Shown here in pieces: positions 7,815 through 19,994 of a DNA stretch of 19,994 nucleotides. The DNA is from a virus (Duplodnaviria; Heunggongvirae; Uroviricota; Caudoviricetes). The stretch's first letter is position 1. Each line of letters starts with the position of its first letter. The stretch lies in IMG/VR virus record IMGVR_UViG_2695420538_000013. One strand, written 5' to 3'. The notes under the pieces are model-generated. The model worked only from the letters and a program-made list of their open reading frames with translations. It ran no database searches and was not told where the DNA came from. The position numbers and the translations under genes are program-made.

Positions 7815-8354
7815 ATGCAACCACTTACATACCAACAGACTAGCGGATTTAGCCCGACTGCGGTGATAAATCGTTCTCAAACAAAACAGGTGCCAGGCCA
7901 CGAAAAAATCCGTGATGCCGTCCGCGCTTGGTCTGCTGAAGATAATCAGGATGTAGTTGCCGCACTCATTGTGAATGAGTATCGAGCACAGGGCGGCGGC
8001 ACCATCGATTTTCCTGATGATGTCAGTCGTGCACGCCAGAAGCTGTTCCGCTTCCTCGATAACAAATTCGATTCTGAAAAATACCGAAATAACGTGCGTG
8101 AACTGACCCCGGCAATTCTGGCGGTACTACCGCTGGAATATCGCGGCCACCTGGTTGAGCAGGATAGCTTCATGGCTCGGCTGGCTGAAATGGAAAAGGA
8201 ACTCAGTGAGGCAAAGCAGGCGGTCATTCTCAACGCACCACGCCACCAGAAACTGAAGGAGATGAGTGAAGGCATTGTGTCGATGTTTCGAGTGGACCCG
8301 GATCTGGCTGGTCCATTGATGGCGATGGTCACCACCATGCTGGGGGCAATATGA
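7815..8354 (+). CDS. YdaT-family protein (CII-position regulator of Rac-type immunity regions)
   Basis: 179 aa with AAGGAG Shine-Dalgarno. Motifs EYRAQGGGTIDFP and LTPAILAVLPLEYRGHL resemble what I recall of Rac prophage YdaT. Sits between cro and the replication genes. Confidence 0.6.
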   Translation: MQPLTYQQTSGFSPTAVINRSQTKQVPGHEKIRDAVRAWSAEDNQDVVAALIVNEYRAQGGGTIDFPDDVSRARQKLFRFLDNKFDSEKYRNNVRELTPAILAVLPLEYRGHLVEQDSFMARLAEMEKELSEAKQAVILNAPRHQKLKEMSEGIVSMFRVDPDLAGPLMAMVTTMLGAI

Positions 8355-8440
8355 CAGGTTCAAAAATGGCGAAAGTCGGTCTGCGGGAACAGAACCGACT
8401 TTCAGGTGCAAATCGTAACACACTCATTGCGGGAGGAATT

Positions 8441-9370
8441 ATGGCAAACACTGCTGAGATATTCAATTTTCCAGTGCCGGATGCGGCACAAAAGGAGCCG
8501 CGCGTGGCAGATCTCGATGATGGTTATACGCGCATTGCAAATGAGTTGCTGGAAGCTGTGATGCTGGCCGGATTAACACAGCACCAGCTTCTGGTCTTTC
8601 TGGCTGTCATGCGCAAAACATATGGCTTTAATAAAAAACTGGATTGGGTTAGCAACGAGCAACTTTCCGAATTAACCGGGATATTGCCGCACAAGTGTTC
8701 TGCTGCAAAAAGTGTTCTGGTAAAGCGTGGGATTTTTATTCAGAGCGGGCGGAATACCGGCATTAATAATGTGGTCAGTGAATGGTCAACATTACCCGAA
8801 TCAGGTAAGAAAAATAAAGTTTACCTGAAAGAGGTAAATTTACCTGAATCAGGTAAAAAAAGTTTACCCAAATCAGGTAAAGGCGTTTACCCGAATCAGG
8901 TAAACACAAAAGACAAACTAACAAAAGACAATATAAAACCTTTTTCGTCCGAGAATTCTGGCGAATCCTCTGACCAACCAGAAAACGATCTTCCTGTGGT
9001 GAAACCGGATGCTGCAATTCAGAGCGGCAGCAAGTGGGGGACAGCAGAAGACCTGACCGCCGCAGAGTGGATGTTTGACATGGTGAAGACCATCGCGCCA
9101 TCAGCCAGAAAACCGAATTTTGCAGGGTGGGCTAACGATATCCGCCTGATGCGTGAACGTGACGGACGTAACCACCGCGACATGTGCGTGCTGTTCCGCT
9201 GGGCATGCCAGGACAACTTCTGGTCCGGTAACGTGCTAAGTCCGGCCAAACTCCGCGACAAGTGGACCCAGCTCGAAATCAACCGAAACAAGCAACAGGC
9301 TGGCGTGACAGCCGGCAAACCAAAACTCGACCTGACGAACACTGACTGGATTTACGGGGTGGAGCTATGA
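8441..9370 (+). CDS. O: Replication initiator protein O (lambda O-like)
   Basis: From MANTAEIFNFP with GGGAGG Shine-Dalgarno (the track ORF starts earlier at 8351). N-terminal VADLDDGYTRIANELLEA...KTYGFNK is similar to lambda O; contains the iteron origin; stop overlaps the P start. Confidence 0.9.
   Translation: MANTAEIFNFPVPDAAQKEPRVADLDDGYTRIANELLEAVMLAGLTQHQLLVFLAVMRKTYGFNKKLDWVSNEQLSELTGILPHKCSAAKSVLVKRGIFIQSGRNTGINNVVSEWSTLPESGKKNKVYLKEVNLPESGKKSLPKSGKGVYPNQVNTKDKLTKDNIKPFSSENSGESSDQPENDLPVVKPDAAIQSGSKWGTAEDLTAAEWMFDMVKTIAPSARKPNFAGWANDIRLMRERDGRNHRDMCVLFRWACQDNFWSGNVLSPAKLRDKWTQLEINRNKQQAGVTAGKPKLDLTNTDWIYGVEL
8791..8945 (+). repeat. ori-lambda-like replication origin: four to five about 19-bp palindromic iterons followed by an A-rich tract, embedded in the O gene
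   Basis: Iterons ATTACCCGAATCAGGTAA (8791-8808), degenerate GTTTACCTGAAAGAGGTAAA (8819-8838), TTTACCTGAATCAGGTAAA (8839-8857), GTTTACCCAAATCAGGTAAA (8862-8881), GTTTACCCGAATCAGGTAAA (8885-8904), each internally palindromic, then an A-rich stretch 8905-8945. Confidence 0.8.
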
Positions 9371-10068
9371 AAAACATCGCCGCACAGATGGTTAACTTTG
9401 ACTGTGAGCAGATGCGCCGGATCGCCAACAACATGCCGGAACAGTACGACGAAAAGCCACAGGTACAGCAGGTAGCGCAGATCATCAACGGTGTGTTCAG
9501 CCAGTTACTGGCAACTTTCCCGGCGAGCCTGGCTAACCGTGACCAGAATGAACTGAACGAAATCCGCCGCCAGTGGGTTCTGGCTTTCCGGGAAAACGGG
9601 ATCACCACAATGGAACAGGTTAACGCTGGAATGCGCGTAGCCCGTCGGCAGAATCGACCATTCCTGCCATCACCCGGGCAGTTTGTCGCCTGGTGCCGGG
9701 AAGAAGCATCTGTTAACGCCGGGCTGCCAAACGTCAGCGAGCTGGTTGATATGGTTTACGAGTATTGCCGGAAGCGTGGCCTGTATCCGGATGCAGAGTC
9801 TTATCCGTGGAAATCGAACGCGCATTACTGGTTGGTTACCAACTTGTACCAGAACATGCGGGCCAATGCGCTGACTGACGCGGAATTACGGCGCAAGGCT
9901 GCCGATGAACTGACCTGTATGACAGCGCGAATTAACCGTGGTGAGACGATACCTGAACCAGTAAAACAACTTCCTGTTATGGGCGGTAGACCTCTAAATC
10001 GTGCACAGGCTCTGGCGAAGATCGCAGAAATTAAAGCTAAGTTCGGACTGAAAGGAGCAAGTGTATGA
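9367..10068 (+). CDS. P: Replication protein P (DnaB helicase loader)
   Basis: 233 aa MKNIAAQMVNFDCEQMRRIANNMPEQYDEKPQVQQVAQIINGVFSQLL..., recognised as near-identical to lambda P. Confidence 0.95.
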   Translation: MKNIAAQMVNFDCEQMRRIANNMPEQYDEKPQVQQVAQIINGVFSQLLATFPASLANRDQNELNEIRRQWVLAFRENGITTMEQVNAGMRVARRQNRPFLPSPGQFVAWCREEASVNAGLPNVSELVDMVYEYCRKRGLYPDAESYPWKSNAHYWLVTNLYQNMRANALTDAELRRKAADELTCMTARINRGETIPEPVKQLPVMGGRPLNRAQALAKIAEIKAKFGLKGASV

Positions 10069-10367
10069 CGGGCAAAGAGGCAATTATTCATTACCTGGGG
10101 ACGCATAAGAGCTTCTGTGCACAGGACGTTGCCGCGGTAACAGGCGCAACCGTAACCAGCATAAATCAGGCTGCGGCTAAAATGGCGCGGGCAGGAATCC
10201 TGGTCGTTGATGGTAAGGTCTGGCGAACGGTGTATTACCGGTTCGCTACCAGAGAAGAACGGGAAGGAAAGGTGAGCACGAATCTGATTTTTAAGGAGTG
10301 TCGCCAGAGTGCCGCGATGAAACGGGTATTGAGGGTATATAAAAGAACATCAATGGGTACACAATGA
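10065..10367 (+). CDS. ren: Ren (Rex-exclusion relief) protein
   Basis: 100 aa MTGKEAIIHYLGTHKSFCAQDVAAVTGATVTSINQAAAKMARAG..., recognised as lambda Ren-like. Start overlaps the P stop. Confidence 0.9.
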   Translation: MTGKEAIIHYLGTHKSFCAQDVAAVTGATVTSINQAAAKMARAGILVVDGKVWRTVYYRFATREEREGKVSTNLIFKECRQSAAMKRVLRVYKRTSMGTQ

Positions 10368-10434
10368 TGAAACAGGTGAGTTGAGTTCAAACTGTAGTAC
10401 AATTCTCTCCAGTTTGAACAGGAAAGAATATGCT

Positions 10435-10767
10435 ATGAACCCTTATATTTATCTTGGTGGTGCAATACTTGCAGAGGTCATTGGTACAACCTTAATGAAG
10501 TTTTCAGAAGGTTTTACACGGTTATGGCCATCTGTTGGTACAATTATTTGTTATTGTGCATCATTCTGGTTATTAGCTCAGACGCTGGCTTATATTCCTA
10601 CAGGGATTGCTTATGCTATCTGGTCAGGAGTCGGTATTGTCCTGATTAGCTTACTGTCATGGGGACTTTTCGACCAACGGCTGGACCTGCCAGCTATTAT
10701 AGGCATGATGTTGATTTGTGCCGGTGTGTTGGTTATTAATTTATTGTCACGAAGCACACCACATTAA
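10435..10767 (+). CDS. emrE: Small multidrug resistance (SMR) efflux transporter EmrE
   Basis: 110 aa from MNPYIYLGGAILAEVIGTTLMKFSEGFTRLWPSVG..., four TM helices with the conserved Glu14. The track ORF begins at an upstream TTG. Confidence 0.95.
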   Translation: MNPYIYLGGAILAEVIGTTLMKFSEGFTRLWPSVGTIICYCASFWLLAQTLAYIPTGIAYAIWSGVGIVLISLLSWGLFDQRLDLPAIIGMMLICAGVLVINLLSRSTPH

Positions 10768-10796
10768 AATAATTTGTTTCTAAACGACTAAAATAT

Positions 10797-10830
10797 GGAG
10801 GCTCTTATATTTATATGAGCCTCGTTTTAT
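10797..10830 (+). terminator. Rho-independent terminator downstream of emrE
   Basis: GGAGGCTC (10797-10804), 12-nt loop, GAGCCTC (10817-10823), then GTTTTATGCTTTTT. Confidence 0.6.
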
Positions 10831-11021
10831 GCTTTTTGTTAATGTCTTTATTTTTTATGTATTCTTTTGTGCTTTCAAGATTATGGCGTAAGAAAATTGC
10901 AATACGATTATTGTTGTATATTCAAGATAATGTGACCTTAATTGTCTTTTTAAATAAAAATTAAACAAAAATTATATCCCACCACTAAGGTTTATAAAAG
11001 CATACGTTAGCAGGTGTCACC

Positions 11022-12548
11022 ATGAAAAAAGCCATAGCATATATGCGATTTTCATCACCAGGTCAGATGTCTGGTGACTCATTAAACCGACAGAGAAGAC
11101 TTATTGCTGAATGGTTAAAGGTAAATAGTGATTATTATCTTGATACCATAACATATGAAGATTTAGGATTAAGTGCATTCAAAGGAAAGCATGCACAATC
11201 AGGAGCTTTTTCGGAATTTTTAGATGCTATAGAGCATGGTTATATATTGCCAGGAACTACATTGTTAGTTGAAAGTCTGGACAGACTTTCAAGAGAAAAA
11301 GTCGGTGAAGCGATTGAACGTCTGAAATTGATTTTGAATCACGGTATTGATGTTATAACTCTTTGCGACAATACAGTCTATAATATTGACTCTTTGAATG
11401 AGCCATATTCATTAATAAAAGCCATACTTATAGCACAAAGGGCAAATGAAGAAAGCGAGATAAAGTCAAGTCGGGTTAAATTATCATGGAAGAAAAAACG
11501 GCAGGATGCACTGGAATCAGGTACGATTATGACGGCGTCTTGTCCGAGATGGCTCTCCTTAGATGACAAAAGAACGGCTTTTGTTCCAGACCCCGACAGG
11601 GTGAAAACTATTGAGCTAATTTTTAAACTCAGGATGGAAAGGCGCTCATTGAATGCAATAGCCAAGTATTTAAATGATCATGCTGTAAAGAATTTCTCAG
11701 GAAAAGAAAGTGCATGGGGACCTTCTGTAATTGAAAAATTATTAGCGAATAAAGCTCTGATAGGTATATGCGTACCTTCATATCGTGCAAGAGGGAAAGG
11801 GATAAGTGAAATCGCTGGCTATTATCCCAGAGTCATATCAGATGATTTGTTTTACGCTGTACAGGAAATTCGGTTGGCACCTTTTGGTATTAGCAATAGT
11901 AGCAAGAATCCTATGCTAATAAATCTACTTCGAACAGTTATGAAGTGTGAGGCTTGTGGTAATACCATGATTGTTCATGCGGTATCTGGAAGTTTGCATG
12001 GCTATTATGTTTGTCCGATGAGAAGATTACATCGATGTGACAGGCCATCAATAAAAAGAGATTTGGTTGATTATAATATCATTAATGAATTGCTTTTTAA
12101 TTGTAGCAAAATTCAACCAGTTGAAAACAAGAAAGATGCTAATGAAACTTTAGAGTTAAAAATTATTGAGCTTCAGATGAAAATTAATAATTTAATCGTT
12201 GCATTGTCTGTCGCGCCTGAAGTTACCGCTATAGCAGAGAAAATAAGACTATTAGATAAGGAATTACGAAGGGCTTCGGTATCATTGAAAACTTTGAAGA
12301 GTAAAGGTGTAAATTCATTCAGTGATTTTTATACTATTGACTTAACCAGTAAAAATGGACGAGAGTTATGCCGTACACTTGCCTATAAAACATTCGAAAA
12401 AATCATAATTAATACGGATAATAAAACCTGTGATATTTATTTTATGAATGGCATTGTTTTTAAACACTATCCTTTAATGAAAGTAATATCCGCCCAGCAG
12501 GCGATAAGTGCTCTCAAATATATGGTTGATGGTGAGATTTATTTCTAA
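11022..12548 (+). CDS. ybcK: Large serine recombinase (resolvase/invertase N-terminal catalytic domain, recombinase domain, zinc-ribbon), YbcK-like
   Basis: 508 aa. N-terminal AIAYMRFSSPGQ...SLNRQR (catalytic Ser region), central recombinase domain, Cys cluster CEACGN...YYVCP...HRCD, and C-terminal coiled-coil-like region. Confidence 0.9.
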   Translation: MKKAIAYMRFSSPGQMSGDSLNRQRRLIAEWLKVNSDYYLDTITYEDLGLSAFKGKHAQSGAFSEFLDAIEHGYILPGTTLLVESLDRLSREKVGEAIERLKLILNHGIDVITLCDNTVYNIDSLNEPYSLIKAILIAQRANEESEIKSSRVKLSWKKKRQDALESGTIMTASCPRWLSLDDKRTAFVPDPDRVKTIELIFKLRMERRSLNAIAKYLNDHAVKNFSGKESAWGPSVIEKLLANKALIGICVPSYRARGKGISEIAGYYPRVISDDLFYAVQEIRLAPFGISNSSKNPMLINLLRTVMKCEACGNTMIVHAVSGSLHGYYVCPMRRLHRCDRPSIKRDLVDYNIINELLFNCSKIQPVENKKDANETLELKIIELQMKINNLIVALSVAPEVTAIAEKIRLLDKELRRASVSLKTLKSKGVNSFSDFYTIDLTSKNGRELCRTLAYKTFEKIIINTDNKTCDIYFMNGIVFKHYPLMKVISAQQAISALKYMVDGEIYF

Positions 12549-13012
12549 ATAATGATCTCGGATTTTAAGTTATGCTATGGTGATAAAGTGCAAGACAGAA
12601 TTAATTATCTTTGACGAAACTTAATGGGTAATTACTTTGTTTGCTCCCACAAGCGAGTTTTGTACGGCTGTATTGGGGTAGTAAATGAGCTATACAATCT
12701 TAATCATTTGTCAGGTGAGAACTCTTGGTCGCAGATTCAAATACTGAAAATACGTGACAAATTATTATGAGCAAAATGGTGTATGTCACGTATTTTGAAT
12801 GATAGGTTAAAAAATAACACCGACTTTCGTAGGTATTACTAATAATAAAGCAGAGTTTTTAGATAGTATCAATGTGCTTTGTGTATATTGTGGCAAATAA
12901 TTGGGTTGGGGGTACAATTGTGATTGCTTTTGCATAAAAATTGCGCCTTTATGCATAATGAGATAAAGGAATATCAAATAAAATAACGATAGGTCATAAC
13001 AAAGAGGTTTTT

Positions 13013-13564
13013 ATGAAAACACTTATCGTTTCAACTGTATTGGCATTCATAACATTTTCTGCGCAGGCTGCAGCATTTCAGGTCACTAGTAATGAAATAA
13101 AAACAGGAGAGCAACTTACAACGTCTCATGTCTTTTCTGGATTTGGGTGTGAAGGTGGTAATACATCGCCCTCATTAACCTGGTCTGGTGTTCCTGAAGG
13201 TACCAAAAGCTTTGCCGTAACTGTATATGATCCAGATGCACCTACAGGCAGTGGTTGGTGGCATTGGACTGTTGTTAATATTCCAGCAACAATAACATAT
13301 TTGCCCGTTGATGCAGGGAGACGTGATGGAACAAAACTGCCGACTGGTGCTGTTCAAGGCCGAAATGATTTTGGCTATGCTGGGTTTGGTGGCGCGTGTC
13401 CTCCTAAAGGAGATAAACCACATCATTACCAGTTTAAAGTATGGGCTCTAAAAACTGAAAAGATTCCTGTAGATTCTAACTCCAGCGGAGCGTTAGTTGG
13501 TTATATGCTTAATGCTAATAAAATCGCAACCGCTGAGATAACACCAGTTTATGAGATAAAGTAG
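13013..13564 (+). CDS. ybcL: Secreted PEBP/YbhB-YbcL family (UPF0098) protein
   Basis: 183 aa with signal peptide MKTLIVSTVLAFITFSAQAAA. PEBP motifs DPDAPTGSGWWHW and HHYQFKVWAL. AGAGG Shine-Dalgarno. Confidence 0.85.
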   Translation: MKTLIVSTVLAFITFSAQAAAFQVTSNEIKTGEQLTTSHVFSGFGCEGGNTSPSLTWSGVPEGTKSFAVTVYDPDAPTGSGWWHWTVVNIPATITYLPVDAGRRDGTKLPTGAVQGRNDFGYAGFGGACPPKGDKPHHYQFKVWALKTEKIPVDSNSSGALVGYMLNANKIATAEITPVYEIK

Positions 13565-13573
13565 GGTGAGAGT

Positions 13574-14371
13574 ATGCTGGCAAGAGGTAAGACTAACTTA
13601 AAGATCGAAGAAATACGGATGCATAAACATCATGAGATTCATAGGGTTAAGCCTCTTATGCCAGCTTTGTGTCGTATCCGTCAGGGAAAGAAAGTTATCA
13701 ATTGGGAGACGCATACTTTAACTGTTGATAATAATCAAATAATATTATTTCCTTGTGGTTATGAATTTTATATTGAGAATTATCCTGAAGCAGGGCTTTA
13801 TCTTGCAGAAATGCTTTACTTACCCATTGATTTAATTGAGAGTTTCCAAAAACTTTATACGGTAACTGATCAAATACGTAACAAAACAAGTTTCTTTTTA
13901 CCTCAGAATCCTGAGTTAATATATTGTTGGGAGCAACTAAAAACATCTGTTTCCCGAGGCTTCTCAACTAAAATTCAGGAGCACTTAGCAATGGGCGTTC
14001 TACTTTCGTTAGGAGTGAATCATGTTAATCATTTACTTTTATCATATAGTAAACAATCATTGATAAGTCGTTGTTATAACCTGCTGCTATCCGAACCCGG
14101 CACAAAATGGACAGCAAACAAGGTTGCTCGATATCTCTACATTTCTGTTTCTACATTACATCGCCGTCTAGCAAGCGAGGGGGTAAGTTTCCAAAGTATA
14201 CTGGACGATGTGAGGTTAAATAATGCGTTGTCTGCTATACAAACGACGGTAAAACCTATAAGCGAGATTGCCAGAGAAAATGGTTATAAGTGTCCTTCTC
14301 GTTTTACTGAAAGATTTCATAATCGTTTTAATATAACACCAAGAGAGATAAGAAAAGCTTCCAGAGAGTAA
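13574..14371 (+). CDS. ybcM: AraC/XylS-family transcriptional regulator YbcM-like
   Basis: 265 aa. C-terminal double HTH ([21 protein letters not shown]...[30 protein letters not shown]). Confidence 0.85.
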
Positions 14372-14487
14372 AAGTGTTTTAAGAAGGAGCAATTCTATCG
14401 ATTTTGATTTTGGGAAATCAACACGGCATAATTATGTCACCGGAGCCTGAACAACTCCGGTGACTTCTGCGCTAAACGGGGACGTTT

Positions 14488-14589
14488 ATGCGCACATACA
14501 ATCCAAACTCTCTTCTCCCTTCACAGATGCAGAAATGCACCTGCAATTCTTTGCATCTAGCGTTTGACCTCTGCGGAGGTGAAGCGTGA
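14488..14589 (+). CDS. ylcH: Small protein YlcH-like (33 aa)
   Basis: Hand-translated [36 protein letters not shown], too short for the ORF track. Its stop overlaps the GTG start of ybcN, and it matches my recollection of DLP12 ylcH. Confidence 0.45.
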
Positions 14590-15041
14590 ACCTCTCACAA
14601 GACGGCATCAAATTACATCGCGGCAACTTCACCGCTATCGGTCGGCAGATCCAGCCTTATCTGGAGGAGGGCAAATGCTTTCGCATGGTGCTTAAACCGT
14701 GGCGTGAGAAACGCAGTCTTTCCCAGAATGCACTCAGCCACATGTGGTACAGCGAAATCAGTGAATACCTCATCAGCAGGGGTAAAACGTTCGCCACTCC
14801 AGCTTGGGTAAAAGATGCTCTCAAACACACATATCTCGGTTATGAAACCAAAGACCTGGTTGATGTCGTAACCGGTGATATCACCACTATCCAGTCGTTA
14901 CGCCATACCTCCGATCTTGATACCGGAGAGATGTATGTCTTCCTGTGTAAGGTTGAAGCCTGGGCGGTGAATATTGGCTGCCACCTGACTATTCCGCAGA
15001 GCTGCGAGTTCCAGCTGCTCCGCGACAAGCAGGAGGCGTAA
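14586..15041 (+). CDS. ybcN: YbcN-family protein (DLP12-type nin-region protein, reported DNA base-flipping activity)
   Basis: 151 aa with GTG start and GGAGGTG Shine-Dalgarno. Sequence [30 protein letters not shown]... as recalled for YbcN. Confidence 0.8.
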
Positions 15042-15211
15042 TGGCTACACCGCTTATTCGTGTCATGAACGGACACATCTACAGAGTATCAAATCGTCGT
15101 AAGCGTAAGCCTGAGCTGAAGCCATCCGAAATACCAACACTGCTCGGATATACCGCTAGCCTGGTTGATAAAAAATGGTTGCGACTGGCAGCAAGGAGGA
15201 ATCATGGCTGA
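15041..15211 (+). CDS. ninE: NinE-like protein (56 aa)
   Basis: Hand-translated [56 protein letters not shown]. Start overlaps the ybcN stop (TAATG) and its end overlaps the ybcO start. Basic small protein in the nin position. Confidence 0.6.
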   Translation: MATPLIRVMNGHIYRVSNRRKRKPELKPSEIPTLLGYTASLVDKKWLRLAARRNHG

Positions 15212-15494
15212 TTTGAGAAAAGCAGCGCGTGGTCGGGAATGCCAGGTAAGAATCCCTGGCGTATGTAATGGCAATTCTGAAACGTCTGTACTGGCACATA
15301 TCCGGCTGGCTGGATTGTGCGGTACCGGTATCAAACCGCCAGACCTGATTGCCACCATTGCATGTTCTGCCTGCCACGACGAAATCGACCGCCGCACACA
15401 TTTTGTCGATGCTGCATATGCAAAAGAATGCGCGCTGGAAGGTATGGCGAGAACACAGGTTATCTGGCTGAAAGAGGGGGTTATTAAGGCGTGA
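15204..15494 (+). CDS. ybcO: YbcO-family (DUF1364) Cys-rich putative nuclease
   Basis: 96 aa from [34 protein letters not shown]...[11 protein letters not shown]. The track ORF starts earlier at 15165. Confidence 0.8.
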
Positions 15495-15854
15495 ATACCT
15501 ACAGTATCACATTACCCTGGCCTCCGAGCAATAATCGCTATTACCGCCATAATCGCGGGCGCACGCACGTCAGTGCAGAGGGGGCAGGCATACCGCGATA
15601 ACGTCGCCCGAATCATTAAAAACGCAATGCTGGATATCGGCCTGGCTATGCCTGTGAAAATCCGCATTGAGTGCCACATGCCGGATCGCCGTAGCCGTGA
15701 CCTGGATAATCTGCAAAAAGCCGCTTTTGACGCACTCACTAAAGCAGGTTTCTGGCTGGATGATGCTCAGGTCGTTGATTACCGCGTTGTGAAGATGCCT
15801 GTTACCAAAGGTGGGAGGCTGGAACTGACCATCACCGAAATGGGGAATGAATGA
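15491..15854 (+). pseudogene. rusA: Holliday-junction resolvase RusA, disrupted by a +1 frameshift in a G5 run (15580-15584)
   Basis: The GTG-start frame gives (M)[30 protein letters not shown] and then stops. The remaining RusA sequence [36 protein letters not shown]...TITEMGNE continues in the next frame (track ORF 15573..15854). Confidence 0.75.
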
Positions 15855-15991
15855 TGTTTGAGTTTAATATGGCAGAACTTCTTCGCCACCGCTGGGGGCG
15901 TCTGCGCTTATATCGTTTCCCCGGCTCTGTTTTGACCGATTACCGAATACTGAAGAATTACGCCAAAACACTGACAGGAGCAGGAGTATGA
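15851..15991 (+). CDS. ylcG: Small protein YlcG-like (46 aa)
   Basis: Hand-translated [46 protein letters not shown]. Start overlaps the rusA stop. Confidence 0.55.
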
Positions 15992-16076
15992 AGTCAGAGA
16001 TAACAATCAACTAATACTGTTTTGTTGATTTTTGCTTGTAATTGGCGTTCTGGTCTGAGTTTTGTGGAGTAAGTTG

Positions 16077-16454
16077 ATGCGTGATATTCAGATGGTTCTT
16101 GAGCGTTGGGGAGCGTGGGCGGCTAATAATCATGAAGATGTGACCTGGTCGTCCATTGCCGCCGGTTTTAAGGGATTAATTCCTTCAAAAGTAAAATCTC
16201 GCCCGCAATGTTGTGACGATGACGCGATGATCATTTGCGGGTGCATGGCCCGTCTGAAAAAGAACAACAGCGATTTGCATGATTTATTGGTGGACTATTA
16301 TGTCGGCGGCATGACTTTTATGGCGCTTGCACGTAAGCATGGGCGATCTGATTGTTGGGTTGGCAGGATGCTCCAGAAAGCTGAGTGCGTAGTGGAGGGT
16401 ATGCTGATGGTGTTGGATCTCCGATTGGAGATGGATGCTGATTGTTCGAAATAA
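16077..16454 (+). CDS. quuD: Late-gene antiterminator Q (QuuD-like)
   Basis: [22 protein letters not shown]... with Cys-rich zinc-binding region ([16 protein letters not shown]). Positioned just upstream of the late promoter/terminator and lysis genes. The start may instead be the TTG one codon earlier (16074) or the TTG at 16062. Confidence 0.85.
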
Positions 16455-16466
16455 TTAAAGGAAAAG

Positions 16467-16495
16467 TTGCTGTCTGATTCTCATTAGTCTAACAT
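16467..16495 (+). promoter_or_regulatory. Candidate late promoter pR' (Q-utilisation region)
   Basis: TTGCTG (16467-16472), 17-bp spacer, TAACAT (16490-16495), located between Q and the terminator, followed by the near-palindrome AACATTTTAAATGTT. Confidence 0.25.
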
Positions 16496-16552
16496 TTTAA
16501 ATGTTGGAATCGCAACGTAGTTATTATCATATAACAGCTTGTTTCCTGATTT

Positions 16553-16582
16553 AGCCAGCCTCCCCAAAGGCTGGTTTTTTTC
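16553..16582 (+). terminator. Rho-independent terminator (tR'-like) downstream of Q and its promoter region
   Basis: AGCCAGCC, loop TCCCCAAA, GGCTGG, followed by a T7 run (16575-16581). Confidence 0.7.
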
Positions 16583-16609
16583 TAATAAGTATTATTTCGG
16601 GTAGGGATT

Positions 16610-17134
16610 TTATTGTTTAACCCATAATAATTCATTGACATTGAATCCCAACTTTTGAGCGGTTCGCACATAGTCTGCTTTTACTTTATCTGGAATAGTT
16701 GGGGTCCTTGCCAGAATCCATAGGTATTCTCTGTTCGGACCACTGACAAGAGCATACTTATACTCATCATCCAGTTTGATTACATTATAGCCACCATAGA
16801 AGGGGCCAAAAAACGAAACCTTCAACGCTGCAGTTTTAGTATCTCCAGTAAAGTATGCTTTACCTTCGCTCTCGCTCCATTTATTTTTCGTTGGATCGTA
16901 TCCACGGTTAAGTACACGAATCCCTCCGTCGTTCCGTTTTCCATAGGTAGCGCTGACCTGTTCCAGACCACGTTCGAACCGGTTCTCGAGGCGAGCTATT
17001 TCATACCATTTTCCGAGGTAGCGGTTGGCGTCAAAATTTGTAATCGGCTGCACACCTTTAGGTGGTGTCGGGGCCTTACATGCTATAAGAGTGAAAGAGA
17101 GTGCAATGCCAGTCAACACAGGCCATAACTTCAT
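16610..17134 (-). CDS. Bacterial lipocalin (Blc-like) outer-membrane lipoprotein
   Basis: 174 aa with lipoprotein signal and lipobox LIAC (MKLWPVLTGIALSFTLIACKAP). Lipocalin motifs NFDANRYLGKWYEIARLENRFERG and KVSFFGPFYGGYNVIKLD. Diverged from, not identical to, my recollection of chromosomal Blc. Confidence 0.85.
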   Translation of the reverse strand: MKLWPVLTGIALSFTLIACKAPTPPKGVQPITNFDANRYLGKWYEIARLENRFERGLEQVSATYGKRNDGGIRVLNRGYDPTKNKWSESEGKAYFTGDTKTAALKVSFFGPFYGGYNVIKLDDEYKYALVSGPNREYLWILARTPTIPDKVKADYVRTAQKLGFNVNELLWVKQ

Positions 17135-17326
17135 AATAAATCCTGTACTTTTGATAGTTGAGAGTAAGTATGAAAGATAGATGATTACGACCGATCACTT
17201 AAAGAACTTTCATACTATATTAGGAATAGTCTATAACAGAAAAATTGTCAGTGATGACGCCAGAAAGGCAATTTATTCCGTGCACTACACAGTTTATGTG
17301 TTAATGAATTAGTCAAGGGGGAGAAT

Positions 17327-18286
17327 ATGATAAAAAAACCTGTGATTGGAATCAGCGGTTGTTTGGCCGGCTCTGCTGTTCGTTTTGATGGTGGTCACAA
17401 AAGAGCTGACTTTTTAATGGACAAATTAGTGGAATGGGTAACATTCAGACCAGTATGTCCGGAAATGGCTATAGGGCTGCCAGTTCCGCGTCCTGCTCTA
17501 CGTCTTGTGCGCTCGACGCAAGGAAATATACGGATGTGTTTCAGCCACGACCAGAATGAGGATGTGACAGAGAGAATGACAGAGTTTAGTCGTTCTTATA
17601 TGGACAAATTAAAGGATGTATCGGGGTTTGTGGTTTGTGCTAAATCTCCCAGCTGTGGCATGGAGCGCGTGCGTGTCTATGATGAAAATGGTAATCGAGG
17701 TCGTAAAGATGGAGTGGGACTATTTACGAGCACTTTGATGGAAAAGTTTTCCTGGCTACCGGTTGAAGAGGATGGGCGATTACATGATCCAGTGCTTCGT
17801 GAGAATTTTGTTGAAAGAGTTTTTGCTTTGCATGAGCTCAATCACCTTTACAAGGAGAAATTATCAAGAAGAGAGTTATTAGCTTTTCATAGTCGTTATA
17901 AGCTTCAGTTGTTGGCGCATAGTCAGGCAGGCTATAAAGATATGGGACCATTTGTGGCTGCAATACACGAGTGGGCGGACCTTGAATCATACTTTGAGGT
18001 GTATCGTGATAAGCTGATGGCGATTCTCAGAAAACCTGCATCACGTAAAAATCACACGAATGTGCTGATGCATATACAGGGGTATTTTAGTAACTACTTA
18101 AGTACACGCCAGCGTAAAGAGTTGAGCGAGGTTATACTTAACTATCGTTCTGGCACATTACCTCTTCTTGCGCCGTTGACTCTGCTGAAGCATTATCTGG
18201 GTGAGTATCCTAATGATTACTTGCTTACACAGAATTACTTCGATCCCTATCCGGACGAACTGGCTCTAAGACTGATGGTAAATTAA
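17327..18286 (+). CDS. DUF523 (TudS-type Fe-S desulfidase) fused to DUF1722 (YbgA-like) protein; candidate RudS-like thionucleoside/tRNA desulfidase
   Basis: 319 aa with AAGGGGGAG Shine-Dalgarno. N-terminal half has conserved Cys residues (GISGCLAGS, VCPEMAIGLP, VVCAKSPSCGMERV) as in DUF523; C-terminal half resembles YbgA/DUF1722. Domain assignment from memory, not a search. Confidence 0.75.
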   Translation: MIKKPVIGISGCLAGSAVRFDGGHKRADFLMDKLVEWVTFRPVCPEMAIGLPVPRPALRLVRSTQGNIRMCFSHDQNEDVTERMTEFSRSYMDKLKDVSGFVVCAKSPSCGMERVRVYDENGNRGRKDGVGLFTSTLMEKFSWLPVEEDGRLHDPVLRENFVERVFALHELNHLYKEKLSRRELLAFHSRYKLQLLAHSQAGYKDMGPFVAAIHEWADLESYFEVYRDKLMAILRKPASRKNHTNVLMHIQGYFSNYLSTRQRKELSEVILNYRSGTLPLLAPLTLLKHYLGEYPNDYLLTQNYFDPYPDELALRLMVN

Positions 18287-18637
18287 TTGTATGCGATATC
18301 ATCCAAAAGGATGAGTTCCTGCATGCAGGATATTTACAATCGTAAAAACTACACTATGATACCCAGAGTGTCAGTTTGTATAAAAACTCTGTTTACGCTG
18401 AAGAAACCATTGAGATGCAACTTAAAGTTGGTAAACATGCCAGTCAAAATATATAATATTATGATTCCACGCAGCTATATATAATATAACAGATTGGTTT
18501 AATAATTTGTCTTTGTGAGTTAAATACATAATTTTATACTTGTGATGCAATGAGATTTTCCTTATTGTTGAACTGGCGAATATTGATTTTCCACCTATAC
18601 TTACCTGGTGTAACCCCAATGATATCAGGTGGATAAT

Positions 18638-19369
18638 ATGCCATACATATGTTCTATCATTTTGGTGTTGAACTCGTTTGATGTCCGAATTGGTAAAGAA
18701 GATATTTTGTTTAAAAAAGGAAGTGCTGTTCTCATTGATTACAATTTAAAAGATTTTTTTTCATCAAATATAGATCATGTAATGATCGTAGATGTTGAAG
18801 AGAAAACAGTTAATGATTTCTTTAAAAGCAACACACTCTCACCTTTTTCTGTAAGAAGGTTTTATCCGGCATACTTGATGGTGGAATGTGAAGATTTTTC
18901 ATTGTTAAAGAACTTGATTGCATGCTTGAATTGTGATGGCAGAACTGTGGATTTTGTTAGAAATCAAATATCACTTGCATGTCTTGCTATCTTATCTTCA
19001 GAGAAAATAGTGCAAAGTTTTTTATTTGGATGTCTTAATAGTTTAGGAAGTAAAGTTAAGGCTATTATTCACACGGATATATCTGCAGCATGGAGACTTT
19101 GTGATATATCTTCAAGACTGTATCTGAGTGAAAGTCTGTTAAAAAGAAAATTAAAGCACGAAGGCTTATCATTTAGTAAGTTAATTCTTGAAGAGCGAAT
19201 GGTGATGGCGGAAAGGTTATTAAGCTACAATTTATATTCTGTTGGAAAAGTTGCTGAGATATGCGGTTATGAAAACACGTCATATTTTGTGAGTGTTTTC
19301 AGAAGATATTTTGGTGTTCCTCCCCATCAATATTCATCAAGACTTTTTTTAGAAAAAGACATGATGTAA
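18638..19369 (+). CDS. AraC-family transcriptional regulator, AppY/EnvY-like, in AT-rich DNA
   Basis: From MPYICSIILVLNSFDV... (AGGTGG Shine-Dalgarno 5 nt upstream; the track ORF begins at GTG 18629). C-terminal AraC double HTH (WRLCDISSRLYLSESLLKRKLKHEGLSFSKL...VAEICGYENTSYFVSVFRRYFGVPP). N-terminus resembles what I recall of AppY. Confidence 0.8.
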   Translation: MPYICSIILVLNSFDVRIGKEDILFKKGSAVLIDYNLKDFFSSNIDHVMIVDVEEKTVNDFFKSNTLSPFSVRRFYPAYLMVECEDFSLLKNLIACLNCDGRTVDFVRNQISLACLAILSSEKIVQSFLFGCLNSLGSKVKAIIHTDISAAWRLCDISSRLYLSESLLKRKLKHEGLSFSKLILEERMVMAERLLSYNLYSVGKVAEICGYENTSYFVSVFRRYFGVPPHQYSSRLFLEKDMM

Positions 19370-19557
19370 CGTGATGCGTTTTAATGATTTTGTAATTTTC
19401 GTATTTGATAATTGTATGATGCTTTCAGCTACGCCAGAATAATCGCTGGCGTTTTTCTTTTTGAATAGATGTTCAAGCCTTACGCTAATGTAACTTCTAT
19501 ACCTTTCCTCTTCGTTCCGAACCGTGTACACCATCCGTTATTTGCGGAGGTGAGGCT

Positions 19558-19773
19558 ATGAAATCCATGGATAAGTTAACAACGGGCATTGCCTACGGCA
19601 CCTCCGCAGGCAGTGCTGGCTACTGGTTTTTACAGCTGCTCGATAAAGTCACGCCCTCACAGTGGGCAGCAATAGGTGTGCTGGGTAGCTTGGTATTTGG
19701 CTTGCTGACGTACCTGACAAACCTTTATTTCAAGATTAAAGAAGATAAGCGCAAGGCTGCGAGAGGTGAATAA
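19558..19773 (+). CDS. Phage 21-type class II holin (pinholin S21-like)
   Basis: 71 aa [71 protein letters not shown]. Dual-start MKSM motif, two TM segments, GGAGGTG Shine-Dalgarno. Confidence 0.9.
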
Positions 19774-19994
19774 TGCCTCCATCATTACGAAAAGCCGTTG
19801 CTGCTGCTATTGGTGGCGGAGCAATTGCTATAGCATCAGTGTTAATCACTGGCTCAAGTGGTAACGATGGTCTGGAGGGTGTCAGCTACATACCATACAA
19901 AGATATTGTTGGTGTATGGACTGTATGTCACGGGCATACAGGAAAAGACATCATGCTCGGTAAAACGTATACCAAAGCAGAATGCAAAACACAC
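19773..19994 (+). CDS. SAR (signal-anchor-release) endolysin, R21-like lysozyme; 3' end beyond window
   Basis: [57 protein letters not shown]...: Gly/Ala-rich SAR domain then lysozyme N-terminus. Start overlaps the holin stop (TAATG). Confidence 0.9.

Follow-up and report, generated by a model that had tools for sequence, protein, structure and literature searches.

Positions 10368 to 14487 of the 19,994-nucleotide stretch of viral DNA analyzed here (Caudoviricetes; IMG/VR record IMGVR_UViG_2695420538_000013; the whole stretch is referred to as the window) hold an AT-rich block with the genes emrE, ylcJ, ybcK, ybcL, and ybcM. The window is a DLP12-type lambda-like prophage, and the block is probably one allele of a hypervariable ren-ybcN cargo slot of the DLP12/phage 82 type, built up in layers and exchanged through its flanks. 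The block is already known as annotated DLP12 cargo and is not a new system. Its genes carry the names listed above in RefSeq, and its sequence is 100% identical to that of Escherichia coli 266917_2 and 99.6% identical to that of K-12 DH10B. Positions 2183 to 19992 of the window share 99.97% identity with E. coli 266917_2. The entire block is also found in PhiR70_1, PhiR68_2, and PhiR34_1, which are induced or isolated lambda-like phages. An earlier note on this DNA had instead read the block as a replacement of the proximal nin region and as a once-independent integrative or invertible module associated with the serine recombinase gene ybcK.

Cargo between ren and ybcN

The GC content is 0.505 across O, P, and ren (positions 8351 to 10367), drops to 0.362 at 10368 to 14402, and recovers to 0.475 to 0.497 from position 14403 onward (0.497 from ybcN to Q). 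Each module within the block has a GC content of 0.34 to 0.40 compared with 0.50 in the flanks, the foreign composition typical of morons. This drop, together with the Pfam families of the encoded proteins, confirms that non-backbone accessory cargo begins directly after ren, as the earlier note had stated, and the functions that it named (efflux pump, large serine recombinase, secreted PEBP-family protein, and AraC regulator) are also borne out by Pfam. The cargo does not, however, replace the proximal nin region, because no nin gene is displaced. The first nin-region gene, ybcN (positions 14586 to 15041, plus strand; RefSeq name), encodes a NinB/Orf homologue (phrog_72, E value of 6e-52; the Pfam NinB match falls slightly under the cutoff), and ninE, ybcO, rusA, ylcG, and Q follow. 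Therefore, the block was inserted ahead of the nin region rather than in place of it. In lambda the ren-to-ninB position holds only a short spacer.

Nine other ren-ybcN alleles from E. coli prophages and sequenced phages were aligned to the window (compared loci are designated by L numbers). Three begin with emrE-ylcJ-ybcK as the window does, followed by genes for a truncated Rha protein (P22AR C-terminal domain) and a hypothetical protein in L003, by an alpha/beta hydrolase gene in L004 (an arrangement shared with phages 4A7, Perceval, 1W, and 3W), or by only 280 bp in L005 (O157:H7). The remaining alleles carry PD-lambda-1, Rha, and a hypothetical gene (L012, PhiR26_1); acyltransferase and lipoprotein genes (L013, PhiR30_1); numerous small open reading frames (L014, IdasGreatGrand); a pair of small hypothetical genes (L015 and L016); or a gene for a TIR-domain protein (L017). 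Thus, counting that of the window, at least 10 distinct cargo alleles share the slot in otherwise collinear relatives, and no universal gene order was seen.

The comparison across lambdoid relatives that the earlier note had called for yielded sharp boundaries. On the right, all nine alleles reenter the backbone at 14402 to 14404, so that the backbone restarts at 14403, 85 bp before the end that had been placed at 14487. On the left, the alleles depart from ren (positions 10065 to 10367, plus strand; the last backbone gene, annotated as protein ren in a 100%-identical record) at 10310 to 10339, or after 10367 where emrE is present. The left edge of the block itself lies inside the last ca. 10 to 36 nt of ren (10332 to 10358), and these final nucleotides go with the cargo allele; in alleles that lack emrE, homology ends at 10331 to 10339. 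A query for an empty slot, in which ren was joined straight to position 14403, matched 3,669 genomes; the 40 best-ranked places for the ren and ybcN flanks in these genomes included no empty ren-linker junction, and the smallest cargo among them was ca. 740 to 900 bp. The slot is a sharply bounded accessory hotspot that is apparently always filled. We found nothing specific in the literature on the ren/ninB junction as a hotspot.

The backbone linker on the right (positions 14403 to 14585, plus strand) comprises a promoter-like site, a hairpin, and ylcH (14488 to 14589). Position 14403 is one base ahead of a TTGATT hexamer (14404 to 14409), and a CATAAT −10 element lies at 14427 to 14432. In the phage 82 record X92588 the depositors annotated the TTGATT as a putative −35 element and the 29-nt inverted repeat that forms the hairpin (14436 to 14464) as a "possible regulator-binding site." The hairpin stretch has a strong predicted fold (z score of −5.5). 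Diverged second copies of the linker are present between cassettes in L012 (3797 to 3951) and L014 (3023 to 3151), corresponding to positions 14403 to 14556 of the window, and the hairpin arms of these duplicated linkers are altered in a compensatory fashion. Such changes suggest a conserved structure, possibly a recombination linker or a regulatory site.

From these boundaries we infer that cargo would be exchanged mainly by recombination within the conserved flanks, the body of ren on the left and the promoter-hairpin-ylcH linker on the right, and that illegitimate joins would account for the breakpoints inside the block. Exchange through homologous flanks has been demonstrated experimentally for lambda and DLP12 at positions other than this slot (PMC3945230).

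A mosaic block, probably built in layers

Internal breakpoints at 10774/10775, 12589/12590, and 12857/12858 divide the block into four parts. The emrE module (10368 to 10774, plus strand) is followed by the ylcJ-ybcK module (10775 to 12589, plus strand), which consists of a hairpin, ylcJ, the ybcK promoter and Rho terminator zone, ybcK, and a 41-nt 3′ tail. Next is a 268-bp junction segment at 12590 to 12857, segment X, for which no strand is assigned and which is restricted to this allele. The ybcLM module (12858 to 14402, plus strand) contains a promoter, ybcL, and ybcM. Alignment with the other ybcK-bearing alleles gave homology up to position 12589 and again from 14403. This gap in homology indicates that segment X, ybcL, and ybcM form one interchangeable unit, in whose place L003, L004, and L005 have other cassettes.

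A version of the cargo without ybcK adjoins the chromosomal gene fliE. In the one copy inspected in full, that of E. coli 21AR0807 (L002, positions 8722 to 11141), homology to the window covers 10358 to 10774 (92%) and 12858 to 14588 (89% identity over the ybcLM module), with 4 nt where the window has 2,083 bp. The fliE copy retains the last 10 nt of ren and, at its other end, phage sequence as far as the ybcN start, which comprises the linker and a homologue of ylcH; its left flank contains fragments of a phage integrase gene with 87% identity to the IdasGreatGrand integrase. These integrase remnants mark such islets as decayed lambdoid prophages with retained cargo, so that the absence of ybcK represents the outgroup state. 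E. albertii also has emrE-ybcL-ybcM without ybcK (L030, 4734 to 6899), together with the last 34 nt of ren (homology from position 10334) and the linker hairpin, in flanks that do not match those of the fliE locus. At synonymous sites, the prophage copy has diverged from the fliE copy to a similar degree in all three genes (dS of 0.36 for emrE, 0.20 for ybcL, and 0.33 for ybcM). With two independent copies lacking ybcK and similar dS, the most economical history is insertion of ylcJ-ybcK and segment X into an older cassette.

The fliE type is common. All 15 sampled rows in the band of 90 to 95% identity were of the ybcK-less fliE type, and in ca. 2,740 genomes, according to the band counts, the best match was the diverged type at 80 to 95% identity. 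It seems that roughly half of complete E. coli genomes have a fliE-type copy. The ylcJ-ybcK module is present in 1,427 of 5,426 E. coli genomes (26%).

The block would therefore have three layers, in an order that we infer from these comparisons. The oldest would be a phage-borne emrE-ybcL-ybcM cassette. A self-contained transcription unit of ca. 2.1 kb, ylcJ-ybcK plus the 268-bp tail, would then have been inserted into the emrE-ybcL spacer, from position 10775 to ca. 12816 to 12857. Later, segment X, ybcL, and ybcM would have been replaced with other cassettes in sister phages. The units are AT-rich and, in the lysogen, bound by H-NS, with ybcK further restrained by its Rho-dependent terminator. 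For emrE, ybcL, and ybcM the comparisons make a clear case of genes that reached Escherichia via lambda-like phages and were retained under selection after the prophage decayed.

Genes and signals within the block

emrE (10435 to 10767) matches the Pfam family PF00893, Multi_Drug_Res (E value of 4e-35; profile positions 2 to 93 of 93), and belongs to phrog_1395, which is in the moron category. From the Pfam match and the RefSeq name, the product is predicted to be a protein of the small multidrug resistance (SMR) family, with roughly 110 amino acids and four helices. EmrE is a well-known SMR exporter of cationic drugs. The ratio of nonsynonymous to synonymous substitution rates (dN/dS) for emrE is 0.01 to 0.33. 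A 13-nt inverted repeat lies upstream of the gene at 10385 to 10419.

The earlier note had regarded 10768 to 11021 and 12549 to 13012 as unusually long intergenic spacers, but both are filled with functional sequence or candidates for it: ylcJ, promoters, terminators, hairpins, and segment X. The first contains a terminator-like hairpin (10798 to 10824) followed by a U-rich run and a small open reading frame overlooked in the earlier note, ylcJ (10815 to 10964; Pfam YlcJ), whose start codon falls within the hairpin. Synthesis of YlcJ has been confirmed with epitope tagging (PMC6001520). The dN/dS of ylcJ is ca. 2, two of its alleles differ by eight nonsynonymous changes and one synonymous change, and the copy in L003 carries a frameshift. 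The peptide may be less important than the RNA or the regulatory region. According to published work, each of the two spacers contains a sigma-70 promoter and binds H-NS (PMC3946193), and expression of ybcK is limited by an upstream terminator that depends on Rho and NusG (PMC4150792).

The second spacer comprises the conserved 41-nt ybcK tail, segment X, and the ybcLM promoter. Segment X is confined to the ca. 675 genomes with the allele of the window; its right ca. 40 nt can possibly be aligned with the E. albertii spacer. At 12747 to 12796 (50 bp), two perfectly matched 13-nt arms of an inverted repeat are separated by a 24-nt spacer, with an A tract on one side and a T tract on the other. 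The predicted fold (−18.7 kcal/mol; z score of −3.8) can be read as an insulator that resembles a terminator acting in both directions. At 12890 to 12918 is the ybcLM promoter, GTGGCA-17-TACAAT, which is also among those reported (PMC3946193).

ybcL (13013 to 13564; dN/dS of 0.08) encodes a periplasmic protein of the PBP/PEBP family with a signal peptide ending in AQA. The YbcL variant of uropathogenic strains suppresses neutrophil migration (PMC4810123). ybcM (13574 to 14371; dN/dS of 0.12) encodes a protein with an AraC-type helix-turn-helix. In Plesiomonas, too, ybcL is paired with ybcM, and this conserved pairing suggests that YbcM probably regulates the ybcLM unit.

With its own promoter and terminator-like element, each unit has the anatomy of a moron. 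The elements concerned are the promoter-like sites at 12890 to 12918 and 14404 to 14432 and the hairpins at 10798 to 10824 and 12747 to 12796. The assignment depends mainly on the published promoters (PMC3946193) and the published Rho terminator (PMC4150792), as promoter consensus scans by themselves performed at chance (17 sites found and 16.4 expected). An Rfam scan of 10368 to 14487, spacers included, gave no match to a known noncoding RNA.

YbcK is a large serine recombinase by family and predicted fold

YbcK (gene at 11022 to 12548) matches the Pfam families Resolvase (PF00239, E value of 5e-19), Recombinase (PF07508, E value of 2e-14), and Zn_ribbon_recom (PF13408, E value of 7e-8), as well as a PHROG integrase. 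Residues R9, S11, Q15, and D87-R88-x-S90-R91 (the DRLSR motif) are invariant across 38 YbcK homologues, and C309, C312, C331, and C339 are kept in at least 90% of them. The AlphaFold model (mean predicted local distance difference test score of 81) has a coiled-coil hairpin formed by paired long helices at residues 367 to 397 and 401 to 426. In a Foldseek search the model aligned over its full length (ca. 550 alignment columns) with the solved integrases PDB 9dxd (E value of 1.7e-18), 9dxh, phiC31, and Bxb1 (E values extending to 1e-13 for the last two); template modeling scores against solved integrases were low, 0.2 to 0.47, because the domain arrangement is flexible. The dN/dS of ybcK is 0.05 to 0.18, indicating purifying selection. 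YbcK is thus, by its sequence and modeled fold, a genuine and intact large serine recombinase, and it appears to be functional.

YbcK is not the integrase of its phage. In Perceval, a ybcK-bearing phage, a tyrosine integrase and an excisionase are encoded in addition to YbcK. The sole association reported for ybcK overexpression is with sabinene tolerance (PMC7181518).

The architecture resembles that of Bxb1, phiC31, A118/LI, and TP901-1, large serine integrases with the same four-part build and catalytic motif. However, YbcK is only 14 to 19% identical to the solved serine integrases, and with sequence comparison alone it matches just the C-terminal part of the A118 protein (E value of 0.005). 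Unlike those integrases, it is encoded away from the phage attachment site with a tyrosine integrase and excisionase alongside, has an extra C-terminal domain of ca. 65 residues (444 to 508), and has no known attP/attB pair.

Search for recombinase signatures at the locus

The earlier note had suggested that attachment-site (att)-like repeats might be found in 10368 to 10434 and 14372 to 14487. The best direct match between these stretches scored 9, a score reached by 27 of 300 shuffles, and the best inverted match was at chance level (reached by 292 of 300 shuffles). Candidate repeats in the broader block ends (10340 to 10450 and 14360 to 14500) were likewise at chance. The ends of the ybcK insert have no common repeat beyond chance and no dyad-symmetric sites. 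A 30-nt stretch of the emrE 3′ end seemed, by eye and in a MAFFT alignment, to be duplicated where the insert ends on the right, but this duplication was rejected when 779 of 1,000 shuffles and 51 of 74 background windows scored as high. The 13-nt direct repeat ATTT(G/A)TTTCTAAA at 10772 and 12537 is not kept in other ybcK alleles and was taken as chance. No candidate att pair thus emerged at the block or insert ends.

Breakpoints after the ybcK stop codon lie at +41, +66, and +283 nt in different alleles, which rules out YbcK-mediated capture of cassettes at a single 3′ site. Among ca. 675 genome assemblies with segment X, 671 have the whole block collinear and in one piece, and neither an inverted nor a precisely excised form was observed. 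Inverted repeats that might flank an invertible segment were short and at chance level only. The sole partial deletion found, in strain LR-50, left a lone 66-bp ybcK 3′ fragment; it was attributed to IS1-mediated deletion and is not an excision scar. The block therefore does not look like an element bounded by attL and attR, given its chance-level ends, the lack of an empty junction among the 40 best-ranked places, and its mosaic composition. YbcK has left no detectable mark on this locus.

Homologues of YbcK and alternative histories

Homologues with 40 to 60% identity to YbcK are found as lone genes in variable zones of unrelated prophages. In Atlantibacter, Yersinia, Erwinia, and Ewingella they follow tail-fiber genes, whereas Pantoea and metagenomic lambdoid contigs have them in the interval from the replication genes to Q. 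Another, in a Citrobacter conjugative element, adjoins a PilV-like gene. An invertase role next to the tail-fiber genes was considered, but no convincing inverted repeats were found there. In Citrobacter koseri (L021) the homologue is divergent to the PilV/Shufflon_N-like gene, and a 16-nt inverted repeat (14 of 16 positions; 9805 to 9820 and 11623 to 11638) brackets the recombinase gene, possibly by chance. Homologues in L023, L025, L035, L036, L038, and L039 are near SOS-type cargo (DinI, UmuD/UmuC-like), and the variable zone of L035 also has a gene for a SIR2-domain protein.

This distribution bears on the possibility that ylcJ-ybcK, either alone or together with segment X, is a small mobile element that its own serine recombinase moved into the emrE-ybcL spacer and whose relatives hop between accessory zones of temperate phages. 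The module does differ from the fliE islet by a clean indel, its homologues do occur alone in unrelated prophages, and ybcK is followed, after 199 bp, by the perfect-armed 50-bp inverted repeat. Furthermore, in the metagenomic lambdoid contig L035 a 229-bp direct repeat (9623 to 9851 and 12609 to 12831; 82.5% identical) flanks a group of genes made up of a homologue with 59% identity and the KGG and DinI genes; the repeated sequence corresponds to codons 1 to 60 of a nin gene, that for a DUF1367 protein. However, the L035 repeat could equally well be an integration signature or a scar of illegitimate recombination, and it is not repeated in L038 and L039. None of the other ybcK-bearing alleles has the 50-bp inverted repeat, and the insert ends lack both repeats and dyad-symmetric sites. 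Among five examined loci only one E. coli context was found, with no second location, and the contexts of the homologues share no flank conservation past ca. 40 nt before the start codon and no ylcJ beside distant homologues. A self-mobile origin of the module is thus unlikely. The related idea that YbcK-type recombinases are the engine of hitchhiking elements of ca. 2 to 3 kb, which would enter accessory zones of enterobacterial temperate phages and travel in viable virions without dependence on the phage integrase, or a second phage function for rearranging DNA, is just as unlikely; it derives from the findings that ybcK is intact, under selection, and present in 26% of E. coli genomes and in functional phages, that it is an insertion relative to two outgroups, and that its relatives are lone genes, in one case with the 229-bp duplication of a target gene on either side.

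A reversed direction, in which emrE-ybcL-ybcM was an old chromosomal locus adjacent to fliE that was picked up by a lambdoid phage, would fit the apparently greater abundance of the ybcK-less trio (ca. 2,740 genomes versus ca. 1,420) and its strong purifying selection. This history is improbable because the fliE copy has phage backbone at both ends (the last nucleotides of ren on one side and the linker and ylcH homologue on the other) and abuts phage integrase fragments, because the E. albertii trio has flanks that do not match the fliE locus but the same phage-derived ends, and because the GC content of the trio, 36 to 42%, is foreign to the E. coli chromosome.

That the whole 4.1-kb block is a once-independent element inserted by YbcK and still excisable or flippable, the module proposed in the earlier note, is very improbable. 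In its favor are the intactness of YbcK and the purifying selection on it, the foreign base composition of the block, and the fact that no other site-specific recombinase gene of the window was identified as intact, since the prophage tyrosine integrase gene is broken by an insertion sequence (IS). Against it, the end repeats are at chance, the parts assort independently with differing breakpoints, unrelated cargo fills the same slot without any recombinase, the block is almost uniformly collinear with an IS1-mediated event as the only deletion found, and Perceval has a tyrosine integrase of its own.

The layered allele with exchange through the flanks remains the probable explanation, and several points weigh against it. 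The direction of the insertion is a matter of parsimony based on two ybcK-less relics, and independent deletions are possible. Every phage-type emrE copy seems to be paired with ybcK, as the 1,421 genomes with an emrE copy at 95% identity or more are close in number to the 1,427 with ylcJ-ybcK, and the emrE-ybcL-ybcM allele proposed as ancestral was not found in any living phage. No known source accounts for segment X. The account also leaves part of the biology unexplained, namely the role of a recombinase that is conserved and under selection.

Comparison with known systems

Lambdoid morons and accessory slots include lom, bor, and rexAB in lambda and nmpC, bor, and emrE in DLP12; the concept of mosaic linkers in modular phage evolution is also close. 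The block resembles these in being dispensable for phage growth, in its foreign composition, in having its own promoters and terminator-like ends, in its presence or absence among collinear relatives, and in having breakpoints at gene boundaries next to conserved flanks. It differs in that the slot is never empty in the records examined and in that the cassettes are stacked and nested, one of them with a full-length serine recombinase. The fixed position with many alternative cargo sets is also reminiscent of the antiphage defense hotspots in P2-like phages and in P4-like satellites (PMC9122126 and PMC9519451), as are the defense-type genes PD-lambda-1 and TIR at the slot and SIR2 nearby in L035. 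In contrast, the allele of the window codes for a pump, a PEBP, a regulator, and a recombinase, and none of the five block proteins matches a PADLOC defense model.

The location of several YbcK homologues after tail-fiber or tail-fiber assembly genes is like that of the invertases Gin (Mu), Cin (P1), and Pin (e14), and one homologue adjoins a PilV/shufflon-like gene. However, Gin, Cin, and Pin are small (ca. 190 amino acids) and have inverted repeats and inverted alternative gene ends on either side, whereas no such repeats or alternative ends were found beside YbcK or its homologues, and orientation variants were not observed in E. coli.

Other features of the window

An IS3-family element (876 to 2182) splits the prophage tyrosine integrase gene (1 to 875 plus 2183 to 2522). 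Its parts are orfA (1805 to 2131, minus strand), orfB (918 to 1808, minus strand), and an ALIL frameshift pseudoknot (1734 to 1850, 120 bits). The integrase gene is intact in an otherwise identical prophage in NZ_CP026723; the copy in the window is therefore probably locked in place. rusA (15491 to 15854) is 364 nt long, hence frameshifted, and is a pseudogene in a near-identical RefSeq record.

A second AT-rich cargo zone (16455 to 19557, GC content of 0.38) lies between Q and the lysis genes, at the position that corresponds to nmpC in DLP12 of K-12. It includes genes for a lipocalin (16610 to 17134, minus strand), a YbgA-like 2-thiouracil desulfurase/DUF1722 protein (17327 to 18286), and a second AraC-type regulator (18629 to 19369). 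At 16540 to 16583, the Rfam family of a Betaproteobacteria toxic small RNA is matched weakly (28.6 bits compared with a gathering threshold of 50; E value of 0.035), probably by chance.

Significance

The block represents ordinary, neatly layered lambdoid mosaicism, for which no new mechanism is needed. The ren/ninB slot carries defense-type genes in some relatives and is thus worth screening for new functions carried by phages. YbcK is an uncharacterized large serine recombinase native to E. coli and, if it is active, its sites would be of interest to genome engineers. The emrE-ybcL-ybcM genes near fliE and in E. albertii represent domesticated prophage cargo, of which ybcL is relevant to urinary tract virulence.

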